NCBI RefSeq assembly: GCF_022045235.1
Contig: NW_027266275.1
Coordinates: 26,350,001-26,414,000, forward strand
Reading direction: 5' to 3'
DNA length: 64,000 nt
Source of the DNA: Haliotis cracherodii
Taxonomy: Eukaryota
Shown in pieces: positions 1,305 through 64,000 of this stretch. A program made the translations under genes and the position numbers. The stretch's first letter is position 1; each line of letters opens with the position of its first letter. The notes under the pieces are model-generated. The model saw nothing but the letters and a program-made list of their open reading frames with translations, was not told the origin of the DNA and did not search any database.

Positions 1305-4300
1305 CTGCGGAAAAAACATTAGTCAACAGTGTCCACAGGTATTCATGGTATAACAATAAAACATGCATAAGCAGTTACAATAACAACTAGTTTTAAGCAT
1401 GCTAAGGGTGACATGTAACTTATCTAGTTTCAAAATGAAGAGCTCTCTACATAATCAACTTTAACTCAGAATCAGAAAAGACTTGTTTTTGTGCTCAAAC
1501 ACATCTTCAAACACATAGAAAGATATTCGAGATGTGACGACATTTTTGTGTTTGACCATCTCATACCTAGAACAACTTCATTTGATTTTGGTGGCCATTT
1601 TGCCCAATATTTTTTTAAGTTGATTATGCATTTTCCTCGTGTTTCAGTAAAGATAAAAGATAAATATTACCCATATAAAAAGTGTCCTGTTTTTCCTGTC
1701 TTCCTCTTCTCCTTCTTGAAAAAGGTGGGACATATGCGCGGGCATCTGGTCTTGTCTTTTTGTTCCTGTCAGTGTGTTTACCTCTGTCTTGGACAGAAAC
1801 CTTTTCTCGTACTTCTTTGTCATAGTTGTCTCTATGAAAACAAAATGAAACCAATAGCTACAATGCAATGTAGATCACCTGAAGTCAGTGAGACAAGGTT
1901 CTTGTCATGAAATGCTACAAGACCAACAGATCTCCACTGGTCAGGGGAGTTTGTTCAAAAAGCTTTTGCTCAGAGATGATGACAAGTACCTTTCAGAAGC
2001 GGATGTGCACTATCATCAGGATTACAGTTGTGAAATCATAGCTACATACTGCTCTGCTTTTACTATCTGACATCAACTAGTTGCTAATACAGTACCATGA
2101 CTAGCTGGGCTCAATAACCACATACAAGATGCACTCTGGTATTGAACAATACAACCTAGTATGTATTTCTACATGCACCTAGTGCATGTAAAAATCGAAC
2201 ACATTTGAAACTGACCCACCATGCAAATTTTTGAACTACCGTATTAGACGTAATAAGCGCCCAGGGCACTCTCAAAATTAAAAATAGGGGGCTCTAATTA
2301 GAATAATATTTTGGTGAAAAAAACAGAGTTGAAAGATAAATTTCGTGGTTTATGCTGACAGCCTGAAATGTTTATATACGACAGATATATTTTTCCAGAA
2401 TTTAAATGCCAATACTTAAGGGTACATATAGCACACGAGTGCGCAGTATACGCGAATAAATAAGTCTTTTGTACATTGACCAATCGGAAGGGGTGCTAAT
2501 TGGGATTGTTCACTGGCCAATATATTAGCAAATATGGCCGTGGGCGCTTATTAGAGAAGGGCGCTTATTACGTCGAATACGGTATGCATATTATTTACTA
2601 TCGAACATTACCATTCTCATTGTTGAGTGTAATTTTTCATTGTTCCTTTACCCAGACACCATCAAACTGTGAACACTTGACGATTATGTGCACAAATAAC
2701 TGTGTCAGAAAGTAATCAAATGAATACTGTTCATAATAATAATAAGACCAGTTAGACTATTCGCCTATAGACGATGCTGTGCATATGTCACTGGGTGTAA
2801 TTTTGTTTATCAGCCATTTCGTTGCCGGTTCAACAATTCGTATCACCTGATTCATACTTATTTATATAACCATGTGCTGTCCGTGTTTTGACAGTGTGTC
2901 ATGTATTGCCTGTTTGACAATGAAAATAACAAAATGCCAGTAAATGGTCTTAAATTACTACCAGTGATATCTTCGTCTTCTTTTCAAAATGTACCTGTGA
3001 CATTTAACAGCAGGATGTTACTAATTATTCTGAAAGCAGACAAGCTGGGTACCACATGATACTTGTGTTGAACCTGGTACCTGGTGCATCAGACCTGTAA
3101 TGCTCCGGGGTAGAATAGGTCTTCAGTAAACCACACTTTCCGTAAAAGGCAACTATGCTTGTTGTAAGAGGCGACTTGGTTGATGCATATCATCGTATCC
3201 TAATTACGTGGATCGATGCTCATGATGTCAATCACTGGATTGTCTGGTTCAGACTCGATTATTTACAGACTGCCGTCATATAGCTGGAATATTGCAGAGT
3301 GCGGCGTTAAACAACAAACAAACAAACAAACAAAATCTGGTGCATCATTTTTCGCTTTAAGAATGAAAAGTAATCATAACAAGCAAAGGGAAGAAACCCT
3401 GAAGCTGCAGTTGTTTTGTGGATGGCTGAGATCCATAGACGGAACATTACAAGGAAGCATGTCTTGCAGACAAGGGGCTGAAAAATCTGCTTGGAGCAGT
3501 GATGATGATATTGACAATGATACTGAATTATATATAAGTAGCTTCACTTATCACTGAACACAATTCCACTGGGATTCCAGTTAAGAATAGGTCCACAGCA
3601 ATGGTTGTCGTAAGAGGCGACTAAATGTATCGAGTAGTCAGGCTAGGTGATTTGGTTGATGACATGTCATTGTATACAAATTGCATGAGTCAATGCTCAT
3701 GATGTCAATCACTGGATTTTCTGGTCTAGACTCAATTGTCTAATGACCTCAGTAATATAGCTGGCAATTTGTGTGTGGAAAAGTGAGGCATTAAACAAAA
3801 AACAACAACCAGTAGGGCTGGGACGATACACCAACTTGTGATCTTATATGTATCTTGATACCTTGCTTACGATTCAATAGGTATCACAATACTTGCATGT
3901 GCTCTTGTCTGTTGTGAGTAAGCTAACTTTTTCATAGACAGGAAGGTCAGATACCTGGCACACTGTCACAGGTGCCTTTGTTTGCTACATGTACCAGTAA
4001 CTGAATTAAACATAAAACATCAACAAATATTCAATAACCAGTCTTGAATATCTGATGACAGAGATTTTGCATAAAAAGCAAATTATCAGTTAAAATTATG
4101 GATCACTGAAAATCAGTGATGACAACAGGTGTTAAAGAAAAGTCAAACGCCTCACTTGCTTGATAACGATGTTAGGACCTACACCGAAATGTTGTTCCTA
4201 ATTGCAATAGAGAAATTGTTCATCCATATATCTTATTCTTGCTTATGCTTATGGATAAATGGTTTGGGGAAAAGGAGGTAGAACAATATTTCTGATTTGC

Positions 4301-49900: not shown

Positions 49901-52900
49901 GAGAGGAAGCAGCAGCTGAACATAGAGCGCTGGCTCAAGGACAAGTTCAGGGAGGGTTTCTTCCAGATGAAGGAGTCTTTCGAGGAGCTGGACACCAACA
50001 GCACCGGCGTGGTGAGACATTAGACCTGTAGACACCGAGCTATAGTTCACCATCTCCTGACTTTGGTGGCCATATTTCACATTGAGGTGTTGTTTGTTTG
50101 TTTGTTGTTTAACGCCGCACTCAGCAATATTCCAGCTATATGACGGCGGTCGGTAAATAATCGAGTCTGGACCAGACAATCCATTGATTGACATCATGAG
50201 CATCGATCCACGCCATATGGATACGGTGACATGCATCAACCAAGTGAGCCTGACCATCCGATCCCGTTAGTCGCCTTTCACGACAAGCATAGTTGCCTTT
50301 TACGATAAGCATAGTCGCCTTTTACGGCAAGCATGAATTGCTGAAGACCAATTCTAACCTGGGTCTTCACGGGTCTCATATTGAGGTGAAATGGAAGAAG
50401 AAGATTTCAAAGAGCGTCTTGCGACTCTTGTCCAAAAGTTGTTTGACCTGGTTACACCATTATGCGTATGCTGATGATTTATCCGAAATCGAACAATGGA
50501 GATTTCTTAATATAGAAAGGGTTTTGTCGCTTTTATTATCTCAACATCGTTTATTATAAAATGATTTTCTGATCAAGCATAAGCCACGGTCGCACAACCA
50601 TTTTGATCATATTTAGGTTCATAAGTGCCGACCTTGTCTTAAATGACCCAAGCAATGAAGGTGTCAATAACCCTGGCCATGATCGGCGACAAAATCCAGA
50701 CGGGGAGCTGATTCAATGCTCAGCTGGATGCTGGTACAATAATATACCAAAATAGTAATTGCTATCATTTATATTCCATTAGTTGATGACATATTGACAT
50801 ATGGTAAGTGAAAATGTTTCGATATATTCAGAAAACACTGACTGTTAATGGTATCCATGTTGCCAGGTGTCGTTCGACAACTTCCTAGATGTCCTGAAGC
50901 AGTTCGGGCTGAGTCTCGAGAAGCCCCTGCTGGGGTCCTTCCTAGCTCGGTGCAGCGTCCAGGTTGTAGGAAGCGGTGTGCCCTACAGGGAGTTCCTCCA
51001 CCGGTTCCAGGACCGGAGCGAGAACGGCATGACCCACAACATACTCACCGACAAGAAACACAAGTGAGTCTGCACCCTTGTCAATCCGGACACCGTTGAT
51101 CTGGAACCTCCCCGAGGTGAAATGGGGTTTTACGTCACGTTAAATACTATTTTACTTACATAGCGACGTACATTTTTCGAAAATTGAAATGAAGATTTAT
51201 TTTAACTTAATACCAGCTGGACTGTTCAGATTGAGGAGATGATGTAACAGTAAGTATTGAAGCCTGATGTTACCAGTAGTGATATAACAGCATCCATATA
51301 CTGTCTCACCACAGCGTACGAGTAGCTACAAATACACATCAATTAATGTTTCATTTTTATTTTATTTACTTTTGTTTTATTCACACATTCGAGTCATTCC
51401 TCTGTATTCTATGTTGTAAAATGTTGTAATTTTAAAGGCTGAATATAATGCTGCTTGTCTATGACTATTCCTGTTACTTTCACAATATCAAGAACACTTT
51501 TTCTTAAGGAAGAGAATATATGGAGGTCAACCTCTTTATTATGAGGAACACAACGTTTCGGAGTAAGCATATAGAAGTTGACATCCATATATTCTGTTCC
51601 TTATGTGTATCACTTCTAAATGCCTTTTAAAGACCCTTTTTCTTAGTCTGTACAATTTGGCAGTTCCTATGATCAGTTCAGGAACTATATCACGTCTCTT
51701 TCTATTTTCTTAAGGGAAATAAATTCATTCATGCTGTTCATAGCCTTTAGGTTAAAAACCTGGGTCGGCCGTCCTGAAGGGATGATTAAAGTCTTTATCG
51801 GCAGTATTCCTGGTTTGAATGTGTTCGAATTATAATCAAACGGAAAATATGCATTTTTATTATTTTGAATCACTCAGAATAAATCTGACAAGAAGACACG
51901 CGAAAAAACGACACCCTAACTAATTATACAGTCTTGATATTATATGAATTTTGTTAAAACTTCAAATTCGAGATAGATCCAAAGGTTTTCTGTGTGTGGC
52001 AGTATACCAGTAGTAGTACGCTGTGTATCCGGGCATCTACACACTGTACACACTGTCGTGTTCCAGGTACAACCACCCCGGCAGTGTGGACGGTGTCTCC
52101 ACCGTCAGCGCCATCGAGGCCCAGCTCATGAACATGTTCCAGAGGGACTTCCTGGCGCTCCTCGGCACGTTCAAGTAGGTACCGGTCACATCTGAAGTTA
52201 CGGCATGACATATAAACTAGAGTAATGTGAAAGAACCGGTGATCCTTAACTTCTTTAGAGTAGTATATGTCGTAATTAAGACTCATGTTTTTCTCAGAAG
52301 GCAAACGAAGTGTCGTTCAATTGTTGTGAAATAGCCAATTCCCTTCCACCCTTTTTTCCACCTGAACTAGAAAAAAACCCGCCTCATCTGTTTTCATATT
52401 TAGATATTAGATCTATGCATAGAGATTGAGAGTGACTATCGACAAGACTATATGACAAGAAGGATGACTTCAACTGCCTAATAGTCAACTCTCCCATTAT
52501 GTTGAGCAATATTCCAGCAGCTGCAGTCTTTCAAGTACAATCGAGCATGCTCTTTCTACGAAGATTTCAAACAGCGTCATAGGACACTTGTTCAGAGTGT
52601 TTGTGATAGGTGTTACCGGTGAGGCGGGATAAGCTCAGCATTCGCGAACACACGGTATCGGGTCACATCTATGCCAGTACTGGAGGTGGTGTTGATGTGT
52701 CGTTAATCTATGTTAGTACTGGCGGTTATGATGGTGTGTCGTTAATCTATGTCAGTACTGGAGGTGGTGTTGATGTGTCGTTTATCTATGTCAGCACTGG
52801 AAGTGGTGTTGATGTGTCGTTAATCGATGTCAGTACTGGAGGTGGTGTTGATGTGTCGTTAATCTATGTCAGTACTGGAGGAGGTGTTGATGTGTCGTTT

Positions 52901-55900
52901 ATCTATGTCAGTACTGGAGGTGGTGTTGATGTGTCGTTTATCTATGTCAGTACTGGAGGTGATGTTGATGTGTTGTAGATCTACGTCAGTAGTGAAGGTT
53001 ATGATTATGTGTTGTACATCTACGCCAGTAGTGAAGGTTATGATGGTGTGTTGTAGATCTACGTCAGTAGTGAAGGTTATGATGGTGTGTTGTAGGTCTA
53101 CATCAGTAGTGACGGTTATGATGCTGTGTTGTAGATCTACGTCAGTAGTGACGGTTATGATGATGTGTTGTAGGTCTACGTCAGTAGTGAAGGTTATGAT
53201 GATGTGTTGTACATCTACGCCAGTAGTGACGGTTATGATGATGTGTTGTAGGTCTACGTCAGTAGTGAAGGTTATGATGATGTGTTGTACATCTACGCCA
53301 GTAGTGAAGGTTATGATGGTGTGTTGTAGATCTACGTCAGTAGTGAAGGTTATGATGGTGTGTTGTAGGTCTACATCAGTAGTGACGGTTATGATGCTGT
53401 GTTGTAGATCTACGTCAGTAGTGAAGGTTATGATGATGTGTTGTACATCTACGTCAGTAGTGAAGGTTATGATGGTGTGTTGTAGATCTACGTCAGTAGT
53501 GAAGGTTATGATGGTGTGTTGTAGATCTACGTCAGTAGTGAAGGTTATGATGGTGTGTTGTAGATCTACGTCAGTAGTGACGGTTATGATGATGTGTTGT
53601 AGGTCTACGTCAGTAGTGAAGGTTATGATGATGTGTTGTACATCTACGCCAGTAGTGAAGGTTATGATGGTTTGTTGTAGATCTACGTCAGTATTGAAGG
53701 TTATGATGGTGTGTTGTAGGTCTACATCAGTAGTGACGGTTATGATGGTGTGTTGTAGATCTACGTCAGTAGTGAAGGTTATGATGATGTGTTGTAGATC
53801 TACGTCAGTAGTGAAGGTTATGATGGTGTGTTGTAGATCTACGTCAGTAGTGAAGGTTATGATGGTGTGTTGTAGGTCCATTGACAAGATCGGACAGGAC
53901 ATCATCAGCCAGGAGGAATTCCGTGCCGCCATAGAAAGCCGGTTTAGTCTGGAGCTGACCGACACCCAGTTCGAGGCTTTCACAGACAGAGTACCAATGG
54001 ACGAAGAAGGAAACGTCAGATATGCAGAGTTCATGCAGCTCTTTGACACAAAGTAAGTATCATATGTTCCCATGTTTGTTCAGGTGAATGTTTGACTTGC
54101 CTTTGCGTGTATTTGTGACGTTTGCCCCAAGTGGGAGAAATACATTCACTTTTACACGAACATCTGTTATCATCACTAATTAATAGCGATTAAGAAACAC
54201 ATGTTTATGATATAGTCGGAATCATACAACGGATTTATAATGTCTTATGCTAATGGAAATGGTTTTGTCGCTTGTAATTAAAAAAAAGACTAAACGTTCT
54301 GTAGATCATCTCATGAACTCCATCTCATTGAAATACCATTTGATGAAATAACCTCATTTATATATCATTTGATGGAAATGACCTCATTGAAATCTAATTG
54401 AAATTATGGACATAAACTCATTTATATCTCATTCGATAGTGCCTCATTAAAAACATTCTTGATTACGTGAATAGCTGTTCAGACTGCCATTGTATCATTG
54501 GTATCGCACCTGATGGACATCGTCTAATTAATGTATTTTATTTGTTGGATATTTTCTCAGTGACATCTCATTAAATGGAAACTGTACCGCGGCTTACTAG
54601 ACAACACAAATTTGCAAACTTCAAATAAANNNNNNNNNNNNNNNNNNNNNNNNNNNNNNNNNNNNNNNNNNNNNNNNNNNNNNNNNNNNNNNNNNNNNNN
54701 NNNNNNNNNNNNNNNNNNNNNNNNNNNNNNNNNNNNNNNNNNNNNNNNNNNNNNNNNNNNNNNNNTTTCTCATTTATGTTTTAAATTTACACAGGGGTAA
54801 GGCCCAAAGCCTCTTCCAGGGCAAGCGGAAGACAGTCGATACCCTGACCATCCCTCAGCCCGAGCAGTCCCAGTCTCCCCGCCAACCGCTCCACGAGGAC
54901 GAGTTCGAGGACAACTTCGTCAGGAGGACACCCCAGGAAATTTTCAAGGTCATCAAGGACTTGCTGCACCGCAGGTACCAGGATGTGGAGGCCGCCTTCT
55001 ATGACCTGGACGAGACCAACACCAGACGCTTGACCACAGAGATGATGCACCAGCTTCTAAAGAGGTAATTGTATCTGACAGTGCTTGGTGTTGAGAGTTG
55101 GCTGATGTGAACGTATTTATGAGGGTTAAAGGAGTGGAATAAAAAGAAAACCAAGTGGAGTCTGCGGAGAAGCGTTTTGGTGGTTCATGTGAAGGTTGAG
55201 ATGACGTAGGGTGGAAGATAGAAAAGGTGGATTGTGGAGGCGTAGAATCTGGAGTTTGGAGGAGCGTGGGTGAATGGACAGGTTATGCCAGTAAATTCAA
55301 TAATGTTCTAGGCAGATTTTTTAACATCTAATACAACAAAACTATATCCAAGGATTCTACGGGAATGGTTGAGCATTTCTTTCAGGAATATCACCGCCGG
55401 GGACACCAAGAACCCAGATTCACACAGTTAAACGACTGTGAGAAACAAACTCGTGTCTTCAATGTGATGAAGCAACTGATTAACGCCCTCCTCTCTCGCC
55501 ACCCTGAATATGTTAAACTATTTTGAACTACGTGTTGCACCTGTTACATGTATCTCATCAACGCCACCGACTTACTGGGACAATACCACTGATGTGTTTA
55601 AAGCGTTTGGTACACTTGGTATAAAGTGGAGCGTATTTTACTGCTGTTTCCCTTTATGCAATTGCCTCACGTAATCCCAGACACTAGTGTTATTTTCCCA
55701 GATTCGACATTCAGCCGGAGGTATCCCGACGTGAAATCCGCGACCTCTGGAAGACCTTCATCACCAACACAGACCGGACTCTCGACTACCTGCAGTTTGT
55801 CCGCCATTTCGGCTTCTCCTTGAGGTCCGCCACCTACCCTAACGCCAAACTGAACCCCCCACGGCGGGGGGATGCTGACTACATGCTGAGGTCCAGGAAA

Positions 55901-58653
55901 CTCAACTGTGCATCTGACATGCTGCAAGACAGTCTTCGCTCTAAGGTGAGTTTCAACTAAAGAAGTAAACAGGCTATCGTGTCACGTGATTTGTTAGGTC
56001 CAGACAAGCTTTCACCATATTGTCTGGTCCAGACTCGATCGTGTACAGGCCGAGTGTCGTTTGGCAGCAGTACTGCCGCGTTAGCCAACACACACTTCTT
56101 TTATGCAGACGTTGTGGGTGACAGGTGCTATGGGTAGACATGCTCATGGGGGCTTGTAAGCCTAAACTAGCAGCAAGATTTGTATGGTCACTAACGGGTC
56201 ATAGAACTTAAAAAAAGGATGACCCCGTTGGTGACCATATATATCTTGCTGATAATTTTTGCGTGTGTTCAGATGAATGTTTGACTTGCCTTTGCATGTA
56301 TTTTTAACGTTTGCCCCCGGTGGAAAAAATACATTCAATTTACCTCAATTTTTCAATTTTTGTGTCACAAACCCTTAGGACATGTTTACCCTCGCGAACA
56401 CCTGGGGTTATCAGTGATTTTCAGTGAGTGATCCGTTCATATAATTTTCATCACTCTTTTGTCCTCTACGCCCAGTGGAATATGTTTCGGCAGATAACCG
56501 AGACTGTTTATTCTCTGGCGTCGATGGTTTATATGTAACGGTTGAATCTGTAGACCAATACATCATGATTATCTTATGACTAATACCGTTAATCCGGTAG
56601 CGAACCCCCCAGACCATGTTAATCTGGTAACTTATCAAAGCAATTAAAATGGTGTAATAATTTCCATATCTCTTTTCACCCCTGCCATTAGGTTGACTAC
56701 ATGTGGGAGGACCTACGACGCGAGTTCGTGAACATGGACCCATATAGCACTGGCTTTGTGACCCGGGAGGAGTTTAGGGACGTTCTGACGGAGCTGTGTG
56801 TGCATCTGAGCATGATGGAGCTGGACCAGCTCAGTGAGAGGTTCGACATCAGACAGGACGGCAGGTTAGTTACTGACACCCATGTCAAGTGTACCAGACC
56901 CCGAACATTGTGTAGTATGCTACCACCTTCACTGTATACTGTATGCTACAGCTCTCGCTATGTGTTGTATACAGCTCTTGCAATGTGTTGTATGCAGCTC
57001 TCGCTATGTGTTGTATGCAGCTCTCGCAATGTGTTGTGTGCAGCTCTCGCTATGTGTTGTATGCAGCTCTCGCAATGTGTTGTGTGCAGCTCTCGCTATG
57101 TGCTGTATGCAGCTCTCGCAATGTGTTGTATGTAGCTCTCGCTATGTGTTGTATACAGCTCTCGCAATGTGTTGTGTGCAACTCTCGCAATGTGTTGTAT
57201 GCAGCTCTCGCAATGTGTTGTATGCAGCTCTCGCTATGTTTTGTATGCAGCTTTTGCAATGTGTTGTAAGCAACTCTCGCAATGTGTTGTATGCAGCTCT
57301 CGCAATGTGTTGTATGCAGCTCTCACAATGCGTTGCATGCTACCCCCTTCAATTCAGTGAGCAGCTGAGTGTGGTTGAATATGCTTTTAGCTGTATTCCA
57401 GCAATACAACGGCGCGGGACACCAGGAATGGGGTCACACAGTGTACCCATGTGGGGAATCAAAATCGAACCCGGATTTTCGCGAGCGATCGCTTTAACCA
57501 CCAGGCTACCCTCCCCCTTTCAATTCCGGACACTTTAGAATAATAAATGCACTACTCCCTATACACCCTGTCTCCCTGTTGCTACCAATGTCTCCCTATG
57601 TCTTGCAGGGTGTCTTACGTTGAGTTCTTGAAGCCATTTGCCCTGAGGAAGCAGGTCTGGCGTCATGGAAACAACATGTTGTCGCTACTGCAGCACCCCC
57701 AGCCCGAGCTCCCGATCGCCGATGTTGTAGAACCCCCTCAACAGGGTCTACACGGTATCACAGCCAAACTCAGACAGAAGGTAGGCCTTTCAGCCGGGGA
57801 CCAAAGAAATGGTTAAAGGTGTAGACATGTACAGCTATATATTCTTCTTACTATCTTGCGTAGTTTTCTGTAAATAACTCACAATATATGAAGATGCGCA
57901 GGACCCTTCCCCTCAAACAAAGGTCTGGGCACAAGCTCATGTCACATATGCATGGTTCATTAGTACAGAACCTTGAGACATCCTAAAAAAAAGGTTGTTC
58001 TACCATTTCGGTGACCTGCTAAAGTTCAGTTCTAAAGTTCTTTACTATCAGTGTATGTGCTGATACTGTTCTTCACTGGTGTCACGTCAGATAATGTAAG
58101 TTAAATATATCTGTGTATTATCATTATTATGTTCATAAGGTCATTACAATGGACCATAACTTCTTTTCAAAGCACTGAACTATTATATGCTTGAACAAGG
58201 AGAAAAGGGGCCCAATAAATCCCTAGCAGCCTGGACATGTCTTGTAAGGATCTGGTGATTGTAACCAGGGTGATTGCATGCCATCGAACCCCGACAGGTT
58301 TCATCATTGCTCACAGAACGATTAGCTGGAGGATTGCTGACTGCGGCTAAAAACAACATTCCTTCCCATGTTGTGACGTATTGAACTATTTCTGTTCGCA
58401 GCTGGCGGGTGACTGGAAGAATCTACGCCGCGCATTCCGGAAGTTAGACGTGACCGGAAACGGATATTTATCTGTCCCAGAGTTCCGTTCGGTTCTCAAA
58501 TTGGCGAATGTGCTTCTTGACGAAGACGAGGTTTACCACGTGATGACACAGTTTGATAGAGACATGACAGGCAAAATATCCTACGACAAGTTCATTGATG
58601 AAACATTTAGGCCTGAAACACGACGAAGTGCAAGACGACCATCTCAAAGTTAA
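28625..58653 (+). CDS. EFCAB6: EF-hand calcium-binding domain-containing protein 6-like, 15 exons, ~944 aa; join(28625..28994,45139..45239,45972..46069,46432..46683,47349..47486,48594..48718,49854..50011,50867..51063,52067..52174,53876..54052,54795..55064,55702..55945,56692..56864,57609..57780,58402..58653)
   Basis: Repeated EF-hand pairs (FKDNDPEGKGNVSRE, FEELDTNSTGVVSFDNF, FVNMDPYSTGFVTREEF, FRKLDVTGNGYLSVPEF, FDRDMTGKISYDKF). The C-terminus resembles recalled EFCAB6. All phases are consistent (2835 nt). Orthology versus paralogy was not tested. Confidence 0.85.
29534..29805 (-). mobile_element. Family B, full length
   Basis: TSD agatttcattgag. Confidence 0.9.
30650..30815 (+). mobile_element. 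SINE family A, full length
   Basis: 14-bp TSD cactttacatctaa (30636-30649 / 30816-30829). Confidence 0.92.
31456..31720 (-). mobile_element. Family B
   Basis: Reverse-strand copy; TSD-like atggttatgtt. Confidence 0.85.
33818..35540. repeat. 33-bp minisatellite (tgtttgatggtggctaaagaaagtatacaccta), ~52 units
   Basis: Direct periodicity. Confidence 0.97.
37043..37460. repeat. ~35-bp minisatellite (gttacagtcagtggaggttggttgttctgatatat), ~12 units
   Basis: Direct periodicity. Confidence 0.93.
38495..38662 (+). mobile_element. SINE family A
   Basis: TSD acaa(g/t)agcagtg. Confidence 0.9.
39791..39950 (+). mobile_element. SINE family A
   Basis: Same head, body and tail. Confidence 0.9.
40495..40675 (+). 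mobile_element. Family B with internal deletion
   Basis: 5' part fused directly to the tail. Confidence 0.8.
41225..42035. repeat. 40-bp minisatellite (tagatgtcgtgatcagccagttacaccactagggccacac), ~20 units
   Basis: Direct periodicity. Confidence 0.97.
44450..44605 (+). mobile_element. SINE family A
   Basis: Same head and body. Confidence 0.85.
45139..45239 (+). CDS. EFCAB6: EFCAB6-like exon 2
   Basis: GSRASVADRAEVPPSRASTRLSRPGTQARLEIDE. Confidence 0.82.
45972..46069 (+). CDS. EFCAB6: EFCAB6-like exon 3
   Basis: LESLLKEKLKTNYYEVRKRFKDNDPEGKGNVS. Confidence 0.92.
46432..46683 (+). CDS. EFCAB6: EFCAB6-like exon 4
   Basis: REAFCRILMLVL...VSFTEFFSHF...HLKEKAKQ. Confidence 0.92.
47349..47486 (+). 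CDS. EFCAB6: EFCAB6-like exon 5
   Basis: FLDVADMFPQMNPGGSGRILKPEFKQLLNKMLFFMEDDEFDKLWN. Confidence 0.92.
48594..48718 (+). CDS. EFCAB6: EFCAB6-like exon 6
   Basis: YDSEGTGVVQGAKFLKSLGIEW...NEEG. Confidence 0.88.
49854..50011 (+). CDS. EFCAB6: EFCAB6-like exon 7
   Basis: DGAPVSERRTP...IERWLKDKFREGFFQMKESFEELDTNSTGV. Confidence 0.92.
50089..50375 (-). mobile_element. Family B, full length
   Basis: Three copies of the 22-bp internal module; TSD ca(c/t)attgaggtg. Confidence 0.9.
50867..51063 (+). CDS. EFCAB6: EFCAB6-like exon 8
   Basis: VSFDNFLDVLKQFGL...VPYREFLHRFQDRSE. Confidence 0.92.
52067..52174 (+). CDS. EFCAB6: EFCAB6-like exon 9
   Basis: YNHPGSVDGVSTVSAIEAQLMNMFQRDFLALLGTF. Confidence 0.9.
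52668..53875. repeat. 39-bp minisatellite with two unit subtypes, abutting EFCAB6-like exon 10
   Basis: Subtype switch near 52970; downstream unit is atctacgtcagtagtgaaggttatgatggtgtgttgtag. Confidence 0.97.
53876..54052 (+). CDS. EFCAB6: EFCAB6-like exon 10
   Basis: SIDKIGQDIISQEEFRAAIESRF...DEEGNVRYAEFMQLFDT; the acceptor is the last unit of a 39-bp minisatellite. Confidence 0.9.
54630..54765. other. Assembly gap (N run)
   Basis: Ns. Confidence 1.
54795..55064 (+). CDS. EFCAB6: EFCAB6-like exon 11
   Basis: GKAQSLFQG...VEAAFYDLDETNTRRLTTEMMHQLLK. Confidence 0.92.
55702..55945 (+). CDS. EFCAB6: EFCAB6-like exon 12
   Basis: FDIQPEVSRREIRDLWKTF...LDYLQFVRHF...LQDSLRSK. Confidence 0.92.
56692..56864 (+). 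CDS. EFCAB6: EFCAB6-like exon 13
   Basis: VDYMWEDLRREFVNMDPYSTGFVTREEFRDVL...FDIRQDG. Confidence 0.93.
56940..57340. repeat. 23-bp minisatellite (atgtgttgtatgcagctctcgca), ~17 units
   Basis: Direct periodicity. Confidence 0.95.
57356..57517 (-). mobile_element. SINE family A (diverged)
   Basis: Reverse-strand copy. Confidence 0.75.
57609..57780 (+). CDS. EFCAB6: EFCAB6-like exon 14
   Basis: VSYVEFLKPF...GITAKLRQK. Confidence 0.92.
58402..58653 (+). CDS. EFCAB6: EFCAB6-like exon 15 (stop)
   Basis: LAGDWKNLRRAFRKLDVTGNGYLSVPEF...ISYDKFIDETF...QS*. Confidence 0.93.
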   Translation: MAGDWKNLRRAFRKLDVTGNGYLSVPEFRSVLKLANVLLDEDEVYHVMTQFDRDMTGKISYDKFIDETFRPETRRSARRPSQS

Positions 58654-61080: not shown

Positions 61081-61346
61081 GCGAATGGTGGTCATACCCG
61101 ATAATGACAATCGATTCCACGCCACTTTCAGTCTGAGATGACGTTTACGGACGACATATGTTGACAGCGTCATGATGAATTCAATTTAAATTGAAATTTT
61201 ATAGAAAAATAAAAGTTCCCCGAAAATCCTTGAAAAAAGATTATGCTGCAGATTGTTGAAAAAAAAATGCCTGCCTAACAAATTACAGTGTTTTCCTTAA
61301 ATGGTTCAGTAATCTGTATAAGTAGATAGAAAGTAATACCTTCCGG

Positions 61347-61700
61347 ACAAAAGCATTCCTGTGGAGCGTGGAGCACCAACAAAAGCATTCCTGTGGAGCA
61401 TAGAATTTCCAACAAATTCCTGTGGAGCATGGAATTTCCAACAAGAGCATTCCTGTGGAGCGTGGAATTTCCAACAAAAGCATTCCTGTGGAGCGTGGAA
61501 TGTCCAACAAAAGCATTCCTGTGGAGCGTGGAATTTCCAACAAAAGCATTCCTGTGAAGCGTGGAATTTCCAACAAAAGCATTCCTGTGAAGCGTGGAAT
61601 TTCCAACAAAAGCATTCCTGCGGATCGTGGAATTTCCTGTGGAGCAGCATTCCTATGGAGCGTAGAGTAAAGAAACAAACAAAAGCATTCTTGTGGAGCA
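61347..61700. repeat. 33-bp tandem array (caacaaaagcattcctgtggagcgtggaatttc), ~10 units
   Basis: Periodicity directly visible. Confidence 0.95.
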
Positions 61701-61809
61701 TACCACAGAGGCCAGTCAATACCTTTCACACAATAGAAGTTAACAATAACATTCCAGGATCAACGTTTCAACCACTCATAGAATGTATGGTGCGATGAAT
61801 ACTCAGTAG

Positions 61810-61964: not shown

Positions 61965-62471
61965 ATGGGAACCCGAACAAATGACAAGTATGTATTTTTT
62001 TACACCAGAACTTCAGTGTTTAGTCAACATTGTTCTACTGAGATTGTTATTGAAGGAATAGCATTTAACTGTGCTGAGCAGTATTACATGTATTAAAAAG
62101 CTTGTATGCTCAGAGATTGGGAAACTGTGCATAAGATTTTAAAGTGTGTTTCTGCTGCCGAACAAAAACGTTTAGGTAGAAGTGAGAGATGTTTTAATCA
62201 ACGTCAATGGGATGTTGTGAGTTCCAATGTGGTGTATGCAGCATCTTCAGCTAAATTCAAACAGTCTGTTTTTCTGAAGAAACAACTGTTAGACACTTTT
62301 CCCAAGATCTTGATAGAAGCGAGTCCATATGATCGTGTGTGGGTTGTGGGTCTATCACTGCATGACCCTAATATTCTTAATCCATCTGAATGGAAAGGCA
62401 GTAATAGACTTGGTCAGATCTTAATGATGGTTAGAAATGAAATAATGAACACAGAGCCAAGTGAAAACTGA
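61965..62471 (+). pseudogene. NADAR/YbiA-family hydrolase, ~168 codons, with an in-frame TAA at 62094-62096
   Basis: Track ORFs 61884..62096 and 62106..62471 are the same frame. Motifs: FSQH, FNCAEQYYMY*KA, QKRLGR, AKFKQ, LIEASPYDRVW, WKGSNRLGQILMMVR. The stop replaces the usual Gln of YQKA (CAA>TAA). Confidence 0.9.
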
Positions 62472-62516
62472 TGGCTTTAAATGTGTTACAGTGATTTAAC
62501 TTGCTATTTTGAACAG

Positions 62517-63132
62517 AGGCAAGAAAACTACATTCTACTCGTGGAAGCATTTCATGCGGATGCCACACACTCTAAATGAGCCAATCATAACACGATCGCC
62601 TGGGTGGTTTCAAGATAGGGAAGAATGCGAGAAAGATGCAAAGAGAAAATTTAAAGATGAATACAAGGCAACAAAGAGAGTCATTATCAAGAAGATGAAA
62701 ACCTTACCACACAACGCTGATGAAGTAGATATGGCTACAAAACTGAAACAAGCAGAGGACCTTCTCACGTTGAGTTACTCTTTAGAAGTGAGTAAAACGA
62801 TCAGCCAGCTCGTGTGTGAAATGTGTATTCCTTGTTTGTTTGATGAAGAAGGTGATCCAATCTTTTTGGGAGAACATTCTTGTCGCATGTCGGAGCAGGA
62901 GCAGGTGGATAAATACTTCAACGCGGCACTTGAGGATAAGGACAATGAACTGGTAATAGGAAAATGGATGAAACTTGTGACTGATGATCCACATCTGTGC
63001 ACAATGCCTGCTTTCCATTTAGTTCCTTACCACTGTAAGGACTATCGTGACAATACATTCAAATCACCTGAATGGGTGAATGGTTTAAAGCAATGCGTTG
63101 TAAAAATGTTGAAGTTGCAAAAACGCTTGTAG
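62517..63132 (+). CDS. Unknown element-associated protein with a CxxCxxC...HxC motif; probably spliced to leader exon 61965..61987 (212 aa)
   Basis: Open 205-codon frame with no ATG at its 5' end, preceded by branch/pyrimidine/CAG acceptor at 62516. AATAAA follows at 63209-63214. Confidence 0.65.
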
Positions 63133-63208
63133 ACTGTTTCCATGTCATATTATTTATCAGTACCAAATGAAATGTGTGTGTGTGTACTTTAGCAATATTC
63201 ATACTATG

Positions 63209-63214
63209 AATAAA
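63209..63214 (+). terminator. Polyadenylation signal for the NADAR/unknown-ORF unit
   Basis: AATAAA 77 bp after the stop at 63132, followed by a T-rich tract. Confidence 0.5.
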
Positions 63215-63313
63215 ACATAAATTATGCTTACATCTTTCTTTGTCTTCCTTTGATAGTTATCTAATGGTTGTTCTTTAATAGGCGTCTGTTGTCAGTGCTT
63301 CTCTCATTTCAAC

Positions 63314-64000
63314 ATGAAGCCACAACAGAGAAAGGTGCTAACAAAGAAACAGGAGAAGATGTTAGAAAGTTACTATTTTAACCCGCTTGAACCGGGAGCT
63401 TTTTATGGTCCTGAGAAACTTCATAGCATTCTGAAATTAGCTCGTCAACAAGATCTCAGACTGAGCACTGTGAAACGTTTTCTGAACAAACAGGACGCCT
63501 ACAGTTTACACAACCACCCAAACAGAGATTCAAAAGGCTGAGAGTTCGAGTGAATTTTATAAATGAAATGTTTGATGTAGATTTGACCGACATGACTCGT
63601 TACAGCAAGGAGAATAATGGCGTGAGTTATTTACTGGTGGCTATTGACATACTAAGTAGGTTTGCTTTTGCCCTGCCTTTAACAAATAAGATACCAGAGA
63701 CAGTACTGAAAGCTTTCAAAGAAATAAATCAGGAACGAAATCCAATGAAAGTGCGTGTGGCTGGTGGTTCAGAGTTTAAAGGAGTATTTAAAGATTTTTT
63801 AGAAAAACACAATATCACTCTGACTGTTGCACATAATGAAAATATCAAAAGTAATTATGTGGAACGATTCAACAGAACACTGAAATCACTTATTACGCAT
63901 TACTTGACCCATAATAACACCAAGTATTATTTAGATGCACTGCCCAAGTTGATGGGCAATTATAACAACACCTTACATTCTTCTTTGCCCAACCTTGCAC
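63314..64000 (+). pseudogene. Polinton/Maverick-type retroviral-like (rve, DDE) integrase, frameshifted, truncated by window end
   Basis: YYFNPLEPGAFYGPEKL...FLNKQDAYSLH, then a 1-nt deletion at ~63512, then PPKQRFKRLRV...FDVDLTDM...YLLVAIDILSRF...VRVAGGSEF...VERFNRTLK...YNNTLHSS. Confidence 0.92.

Follow-up and report, generated by a model that had tools for sequence, protein, structure and literature searches.

NADAR proteins have been described in several systems that are close to the locus reported here. All NADARs tested hydrolysed guanine-ADP-ribose (guanine-ADPr), from DNA, and cytidine-ADPr was an additional substrate for the Glu-bearing NADAR and YbiA families (PMC12945103). In bacteriophages, DarT1 is countered by phage NADARs (PMC11825919). 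A role of viral NADARs against host ADP-ribosylation was proposed before, soluble ADPr derivatives were proposed as the substrates of many viral NADARs (PMC9503650), and the targets of orphan NADARs remain unknown (PMC11543638). Among integrating elements, adintoviruses were previously reported to carry inhibitor-of-apoptosis (IAP) cargo (Starrett et al. 2021, PMC8502044). Here, a NADAR gene that is carried by a Polinton in the genome of the abalone Haliotis cracherodii is described and compared with these systems.

The window, i.e., the whole stretch of 64,000 nucleotides that was analysed (contig NW_027266275.1, positions 26,350,001 to 26,414,000), is closed by the left 2.7 kb of a Polinton with a full length of 20,207 bases. 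The element spans from window position 61321 to C12:26431527, its inverted arms end in AGTAG and CTACT, and both its size and its ends agree with those of Polintons (15-25 kb, terminal inverted repeats (TIRs) starting AG). Target-site duplications of 6 bp were found at all three copies that were read at both ends, the sister copies on C1 and C27 each having their own. The features of the element inside the window are as follows:

61315..61320, no strand: target-site duplication (6 bp), left copy; the right copy lies directly after G000:C12:26431527
61321..61739, plus strand: left TIR, starting AGTAG, with a 33-bp tandem array at 61347-61637
61965..61987, plus strand: shared first exon of 23 bases, with the start codon of NADAR and of spliced ORF2
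61965..62471, plus strand: NADAR, 168 codons, read with the intron retained; Pfam PF08719, E 1.3e-39
61988..62516, plus strand: ORF2 intron, 529 bases, GT..AG, phase 2, containing the NADAR body
62517..63132, plus strand: second exon of ORF2, a helical protein with a CxxC..HxC motif
63209..63214, plus strand: AATAAA 3' of ORF2, probably serving as a common polyadenylation signal for NADAR and ORF2
63314..64000, plus strand, running past the window: Polinton integrase (rve, E 8e-08), frameshifted near 63505-63515

A Polinton-type integrase near the NADAR gene had been claimed by an earlier, sequence-only reading of this DNA, and the rve match, the TIRs and the 6-bp target duplication bear this out; the co-oriented spacing of 0.84 kb given there is also accurate, as 843 bases separate the NADAR stop from the start of the integrase and both genes are read in the same direction. 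The extension of the contig that it recommended located PolB, an A32-like ATPase and the matching TIR in the neighbouring sequence. From left to right, the element contains NADAR, ORF2 and the integrase, then the genes presumed to encode the minor capsid protein, the major capsid protein and the protease, and further the ATPase and a BIR/IAP domain, followed by the polymerase on the opposite strand and a small PC4-like gene. The integrase of the window copy is broken, and both rve and Chromo are above the cut-off in a sister copy. The A32-like ATPase matches Pox_A32 at E 3e-4, just under the cut-off, and was counted as the Polinton ATPase. The polymerase was likewise counted as a Polinton polymerase, being 44-47% identical to that of the sister family B, which itself matches DNA_pol_B_2 at E 3e-21; the polymerase pieces of family A (19 close NADAR copies, three of which belong to one tandem array) gave no PolB Pfam match themselves. 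The proposed search for core genes was thus successful for PolB and the ATPase, and for the protease and the capsids it yielded labels that we presume from gene order, size and motifs: these genes have no Pfam or PHROG match, and the presumed protease compared with ASFV S273R reached only E 0.2.

Over this region, the identity between the window copy and its sisters is about 90-95%. The window copy has lost about 1.5 kb, in which the presumed minor capsid gene and the greater part of the major one would lie, and is a dead insertion. Further observations were made around this and related copies. BIR (inhibitor of apoptosis) domains are present at L011:7204-7503 and L031:3152-3502, in the latter immediately upstream of NADAR. 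The right half of the element on G000:C12 contains, at L012:7174-8990, a frame with threonine-rich repeats as well as a frame containing cysteines and a hydrophobic stretch, on the minus strand; neither has a Pfam match, and they are possibly secreted mucin-like cargo. At G000:C13:16780172-16787294 (L077, L078), the NADAR-ORF2-capsid segment of one copy is repeated three times in tandem in units of 3.26 kb. On the host side, the final exons of an intron-rich gene, with minisatellites in its introns, occupy window positions 52859-58653, and the gene ends 2.7 kb before the insertion. We take the motifs of this host gene to be EF-hand-like.

The NADAR frame itself scores 136.5 bits against PF08719 (cut-off 35.1), its best solved relatives being the Phytophthora nicotianae NADAR 8BAU and E. 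coli YbiA (2B3W), and all the motifs by which a NADAR-family gene had earlier been recognised were found. The frame of the compact gene described at that stage is real, but the gene is not of a plain single-exon type, the NADAR body doubling as the intron of ORF2. In the window copy, the frame is interrupted by an in-frame TAA at codon 44 (62094-62096), of which the earlier reading was aware, and shows one change in a conserved loop near residue 127, while E38, K45 and E118 are kept. The equivalents of E43, K50 and E125 of 8BAU are kept in the window copy, and each of the 14 family copies in which a single alignment spans them keeps them as well. According to the analyst's own mapping, which has a 2-residue offset, seven of the nine ADPr-contact residues named for 8BAU (E43, K50, R79, W89, E125, D130 and W133) are kept in the Polinton NADAR, and the equivalents of D86 and R93 are altered.

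The reading that we prefer, and whose chances we regard as about even, is that this NADAR is an accessory gene nested as the ORF2 intron and probably an N-glycosidase, which would remove ADP-ribose from guanine/cytosine bases of the element itself. Polintons replicate in a protein-primed manner with strand displacement. The substrate would be the ssDNA that is exposed in this replication, or element RNA; the ADP-ribose mark would come from a host transferase; and the choice of splicing would set how much NADAR is produced by this unit, which lies immediately internal to the left end. Also counted in favour of this reading are the BIR/IAP domain of the element and, on the host side, 17 tandem NADAR units and 43 PARP matches.

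As for the origin of the cargo, in a careful tree of 56 rows chosen by the analyst from 160, the NADARs of Polintons group together (support 100/99) and separately from those of animal hosts, whereas a joint clade with the host NADARs, and with it a shared origin in the distant past, is not rejected (AU p 0.18 and 0.11). The Polinton NADAR and an annotated abalone NADAR are 46% identical. A host-gene retrocopy outside the TIR had been named earlier as an observation that would overturn the cargo idea. A recent retrocopy of a host NADAR is ruled out by the separate clades, by the 46% identity and by the location inside the TIR; the host genes have three exons. On C34, 17 last exons of such host genes lie within about 85 kb, and no Polinton gene is found there. 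This array (G000:C34:41512407-41596883; L060-L068, L220) comprises about 17 tandem host NADAR units that have strongly diverged from each other, and in three of the last exons a Tyr occupies the position of the catalytic Glu.

Between NADAR and the integrase lies ORF2 (192 codons; first ATG at 62554, stop at 63132), which was absent from the earlier reading. One start codon serves both genes: when the transcript is spliced, ORF2 is read, and when the intron is kept, NADAR is read. This is concluded from a contig joint, from the N-terminus of an NCBI protein and from conserved splice sites. In run X6, one contig passes directly from position 3034 of a sister copy to a site roughly 530 bases downstream and skips NADAR. 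The joint was seen in this one contig, and the RNA status of the run, like that of the other contig runs, is a guess; the ends of the joint are GT and AG, the junction is in frame with ORF2, and a second contig of the same run covers the NADAR part that is skipped in the first. The NCBI protein P0144 consists of the first seven residues of NADAR followed by ORF2, as expected of the spliced N-terminus. Unspliced contigs over NADAR are present in all three contig runs (RNA status guessed), a small-RNA run contributed seven reads at this sequence, an uninformative depth, and near-identical sequence is contained in the runs of four organisms, three of which were analysed. In the NCBI gene model at a sister copy, the whole NADAR is counted as an intron, and the nesting of NADAR in an intron shows why annotation overlooks such cargo.

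Conservation of the splice sites was followed across the Polinton-type loci. A GT stands at the donor position in 34 of the 40 loci aligned at the N-terminus, or in 8 of 10 lineages in the analyst's grouping, and at the same position in 2/9 host rows and 12/44 non-Polinton NADARs (Fisher p 0.003, a value that overstates independence because the lineages are related). At 37 of 48 loci scored (5 skipped), the acceptor with the highest score has the matching phase, under a scoring rule that was set after the first cases had been seen. The 11 exceptions consist of seven NADAR-less loci, three of which (L096, L098 and L100) have an in-frame ATG of their own, and four damaged or misaligned ones. In family B, the acceptor persists although NADAR is missing; of the upstream exon of this family, one candidate donor was found in L089 and none in L092, and reading through the candidate donor of L089 revealed no NADAR remnant. 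In the slot before ORF2, this NADAR-less locus (L089:3956-4582, G000:C31) contains a frame of 209 codons with a CxGC..HPSQ..HxC motif and no Pfam match; the motif resembles that of ORF2, and the frame is perhaps an ORF2 paralogue.

ORF2 is a conserved gene of this Polinton clade whether NADAR is present or absent. It matches no known family or fold: comparison of its model (mean pLDDT 62) with BFVD and with PDB representatives gave nothing significant, and Atlas matches were zero. A fixed pair with ORF2 as the toxin partner of NADAR is rejected because NADAR-less families also carry ORF2.

The association of NADAR with the element was examined in further copies. ORF2 adjoins NADAR in all 19 family-A copies, NADAR is common to all family copies with an intact left end, and an unbroken frame of 168 codons is kept in eight of the 19; these observations, with the position inside the TIRs, substantiate the earlier claim that NADAR is cargo of the element. 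One family-A integrase without NADAR (G000:C23:40833103) was set aside, that copy missing its entire left end. More distant NADAR loci have ORF2 or integrase within 10 kb in 21 of the 31 cases inspected and some Polinton gene in 23 of 31, and in older Polinton lineages NADAR stands beside ORF2 or integrase at 40-60% identity. At L030, NADAR is conserved between lineages at 54%, compared with 50-55% for integrase and capsid. The earlier expectation that a lack of NADAR in other copies of the integrase family would refute the cargo has a divided outcome: family A contains no such case, but the sister families B and C do lack the gene. The closest sister is family B, represented by about 45 integrase matches at 67-75%; many of these have open frames, and five of the loci were inspected. 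On an integrase tree of 25 rows, from which nine short or missing rows were dropped, the presence and absence of NADAR require five changes. NADAR is accessory, since related Polinton families thrive without it, and from its distribution it is seen as a long-standing accessory gene in the clade that was lost or exchanged several times. Among NADAR loci from IMG/VR and metagenomes, 0/105 had a match to these Polinton proteins, so the link between NADAR and Polintons is established in this genome only; these collections are poor in animal DNA, and the figure therefore says nothing about other animals. The presumed capsid likewise has no relative in IMG/VR, which contains little animal DNA.

Estimates of selection on NADAR differ with the depth of the comparison. 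The dN/dS is 0.15-0.28 in all eight between-lineage pairs and 0.27-1.33 across five pairs within lineages. Within family A, NADAR variants present in at least two copies comprise three synonymous and nine non-synonymous ones (w 0.84), whereas the core genes in the same test have 78 synonymous and 46 non-synonymous variants (Fisher p 0.014, NADAR vs core), with shared-variant w of 0.10-0.28 for integrase, capsid, ATPase and ORF2. These values, together with the NADAR-less families B and C, would fit a gene that was once useful and is now a near-neutral passenger under loss, its intron position allowing it to decay or drop out with ORF2 unharmed. We consider this unlikely: the NADAR count is tiny (12 variants) and w falls to 0.28 for variants in at least three copies (three synonymous, three non-synonymous), the putative protease gene likewise looks unconstrained in this test, the catalytic triad is kept in 14/14 family copies spanned by one alignment, and unspliced NADAR contigs occur in every contig run, with RNA status guessed.

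The nature of the substrate is touched on by fusion proteins. A profile search retrieved P0159, whose NADAR groups in the Polinton clade, and its cluster mate P0294, both from short contigs. The N-terminus of P0294 is 35% identical to the small gene of family A (E 6e-15), and its model matches the ssDNA-binding domains of human PC4 and MoSub1 with probability 1.00 and E 0.006-0.03, with a Pfam PC4 match of only E 0.094. The PC4-fold domain and NADAR are connected by a low-confidence linker in both proteins, and no PC4-NADAR fusion was found among the matches in G000. The fusion of NADAR with an ssDNA-binding domain of PC4 fold in a member of the clade, as judged from this model, suggests a nucleic-acid substrate for Polinton-clade NADARs. 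This observation, and the removal of guanine-ADPr on DNA by every NADAR tested (PMC12945103), argue against the alternative that the enzyme acts not on element DNA but on RNA or on small molecules such as ADP-ribose-derived signals and damaged nucleotide or riboflavin-type intermediates. That alternative is quite unlikely in our judgement; it draws on the cleavage of reactive riboflavin intermediates by YbiA, on the unknown targets of orphan NADARs (PMC11543638) and on the soluble ADPr derivatives favoured for many viral NADARs (PMC9503650).

Candidate sources of the mark were sought among host ADP-ribosyltransferases (ARTs). A search of the host for the Scabin/pierisin-like family (PF22596) gave 0 matches and is insensitive, as its controls were blank too. 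The host ART matches have C-terminal hydrophobic tails and look like cell-surface protein ARTs, and PARP matches number 43. The host ART genes are located at L121-L123 (G000:C4:22.14-22.16 Mb, C34:61.69 Mb); the C34 gene and a NADAR fragment at C34:61663320 are 31 kb apart, a proximity that is probably fortuitous. The earlier proposal of a counter-defence module is upheld as far as the cargo is enclosed by TIRs, retains its catalytic residues and is not a recent retrocopy; the search for the host ART it invoked found nothing, with the controls blank. The absence of NADAR from the closest sister family and the ambiguous signal of recent selection also speak against a counter-defence that would be essential to the element.

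The same empty result, weak for the same reason, would be compatible with a NADAR that shields the host cell, and hence the element residing in it, not from an antiviral enzyme of the host but from toxins that modify guanine and stem from bacteria or other co-infecting agents, a role that was proposed for sponge, coral and sea-cucumber NADARs, and ladybird NADARs are cited in antibacterial defence (PMC12945103). This explanation seems decidedly improbable, as the host already possesses 17 tandem NADAR units, and a benefit to the host cell poorly explains the PC4 fusion and the coupling to the ORF2 start codon. Returning to removal of ADP-ribose from the element's own bases, a more specific and rather doubtful extension can be put forward: an undescribed abalone immune enzyme would ADP-ribosylate ssDNA bases of replicating Polintons, the 17-unit host NADAR array would guard host nucleic acid, and the element would counter with its own NADAR through intron retention, in one lineage tethered to an ssDNA-binding domain. 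If true, the conflict between immune enzyme and NADAR would be the animal counterpart of DarT1 and AdfN.

The case bears on whether animals use DNA-base ADP-ribosylation against viruses and mobile elements. A base-specific eraser under purifying selection on an integrating element would point to such a pressure, and the element NADAR and the host NADAR array would serve as reagents for finding it. In the literature searched, including passages of PMC8502044, bioRxiv 10.1101/2023.08.22.554363 and PMC11071296, no pairing of NADAR with Polintons was found, and supplements, GenBank annotations and Repbase could still contain it. NADAR inside a Polinton thus appears new, while viral NADARs and the idea of action against ADP-ribosylation are already in print.

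Compared with the adintoviruses/Mavericks of PMC8502044, the abalone Polinton is alike in its length of about 20 kb, its TIRs, its 6-bp target duplication, the integrase with rve and chromodomain, the protein-primed PolB and the A32-like ATPase; it differs in the presence of NADAR, nested in the ORF2 intron. The available text of that source has no mention of ADP, macro or splicing, and its supplement, as far as available, is without NADAR, YbiA or DUF1768. The NADARs of NCLDV, insect iridovirus, ascovirus and invertebrate RNA viruses are alike in being carried by eukaryotic viruses of invertebrates (PMC9503650); the available part of that survey leaves Polintons, adintoviruses, Mavericks and transposons unmentioned, and the abalone case, unlike those viruses, concerns a small integrating element that is inherited through the germ line.

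The layout of the two genes has a parallel in polyomaviruses, in which small t and large T share one start codon and one of them continues past the splice donor into intron sequence, while the intron is removed for the other. In the NADAR/ORF2 unit, in contrast, the shared exon is limited to seven codons and an entire enzyme is encoded within the intron, and this layout shows how a compact Polinton can gain or drop an enzyme while the neighbour gene is left undisturbed.

In its proposed function, the Polinton NADAR resembles AdfN of phage T4 (gp30.3), which likewise stands alone as a NADAR, is encoded by a mobile DNA genome and has the conserved Glu and Lys, and phage AdfN, too, is a patchy accessory gene (PMC11825919). 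AdfN-T4 has a His at the catalytic position where the Polinton NADAR has Glu at 118, and its opponent, DarT1, is known, whereas the abalone element has an animal host, splicing-dependent expression and no opponent found in a search with blank controls. The predicted Polinton NADAR may work like AdfN, yet it is not a member of the AdfN-T4 family.
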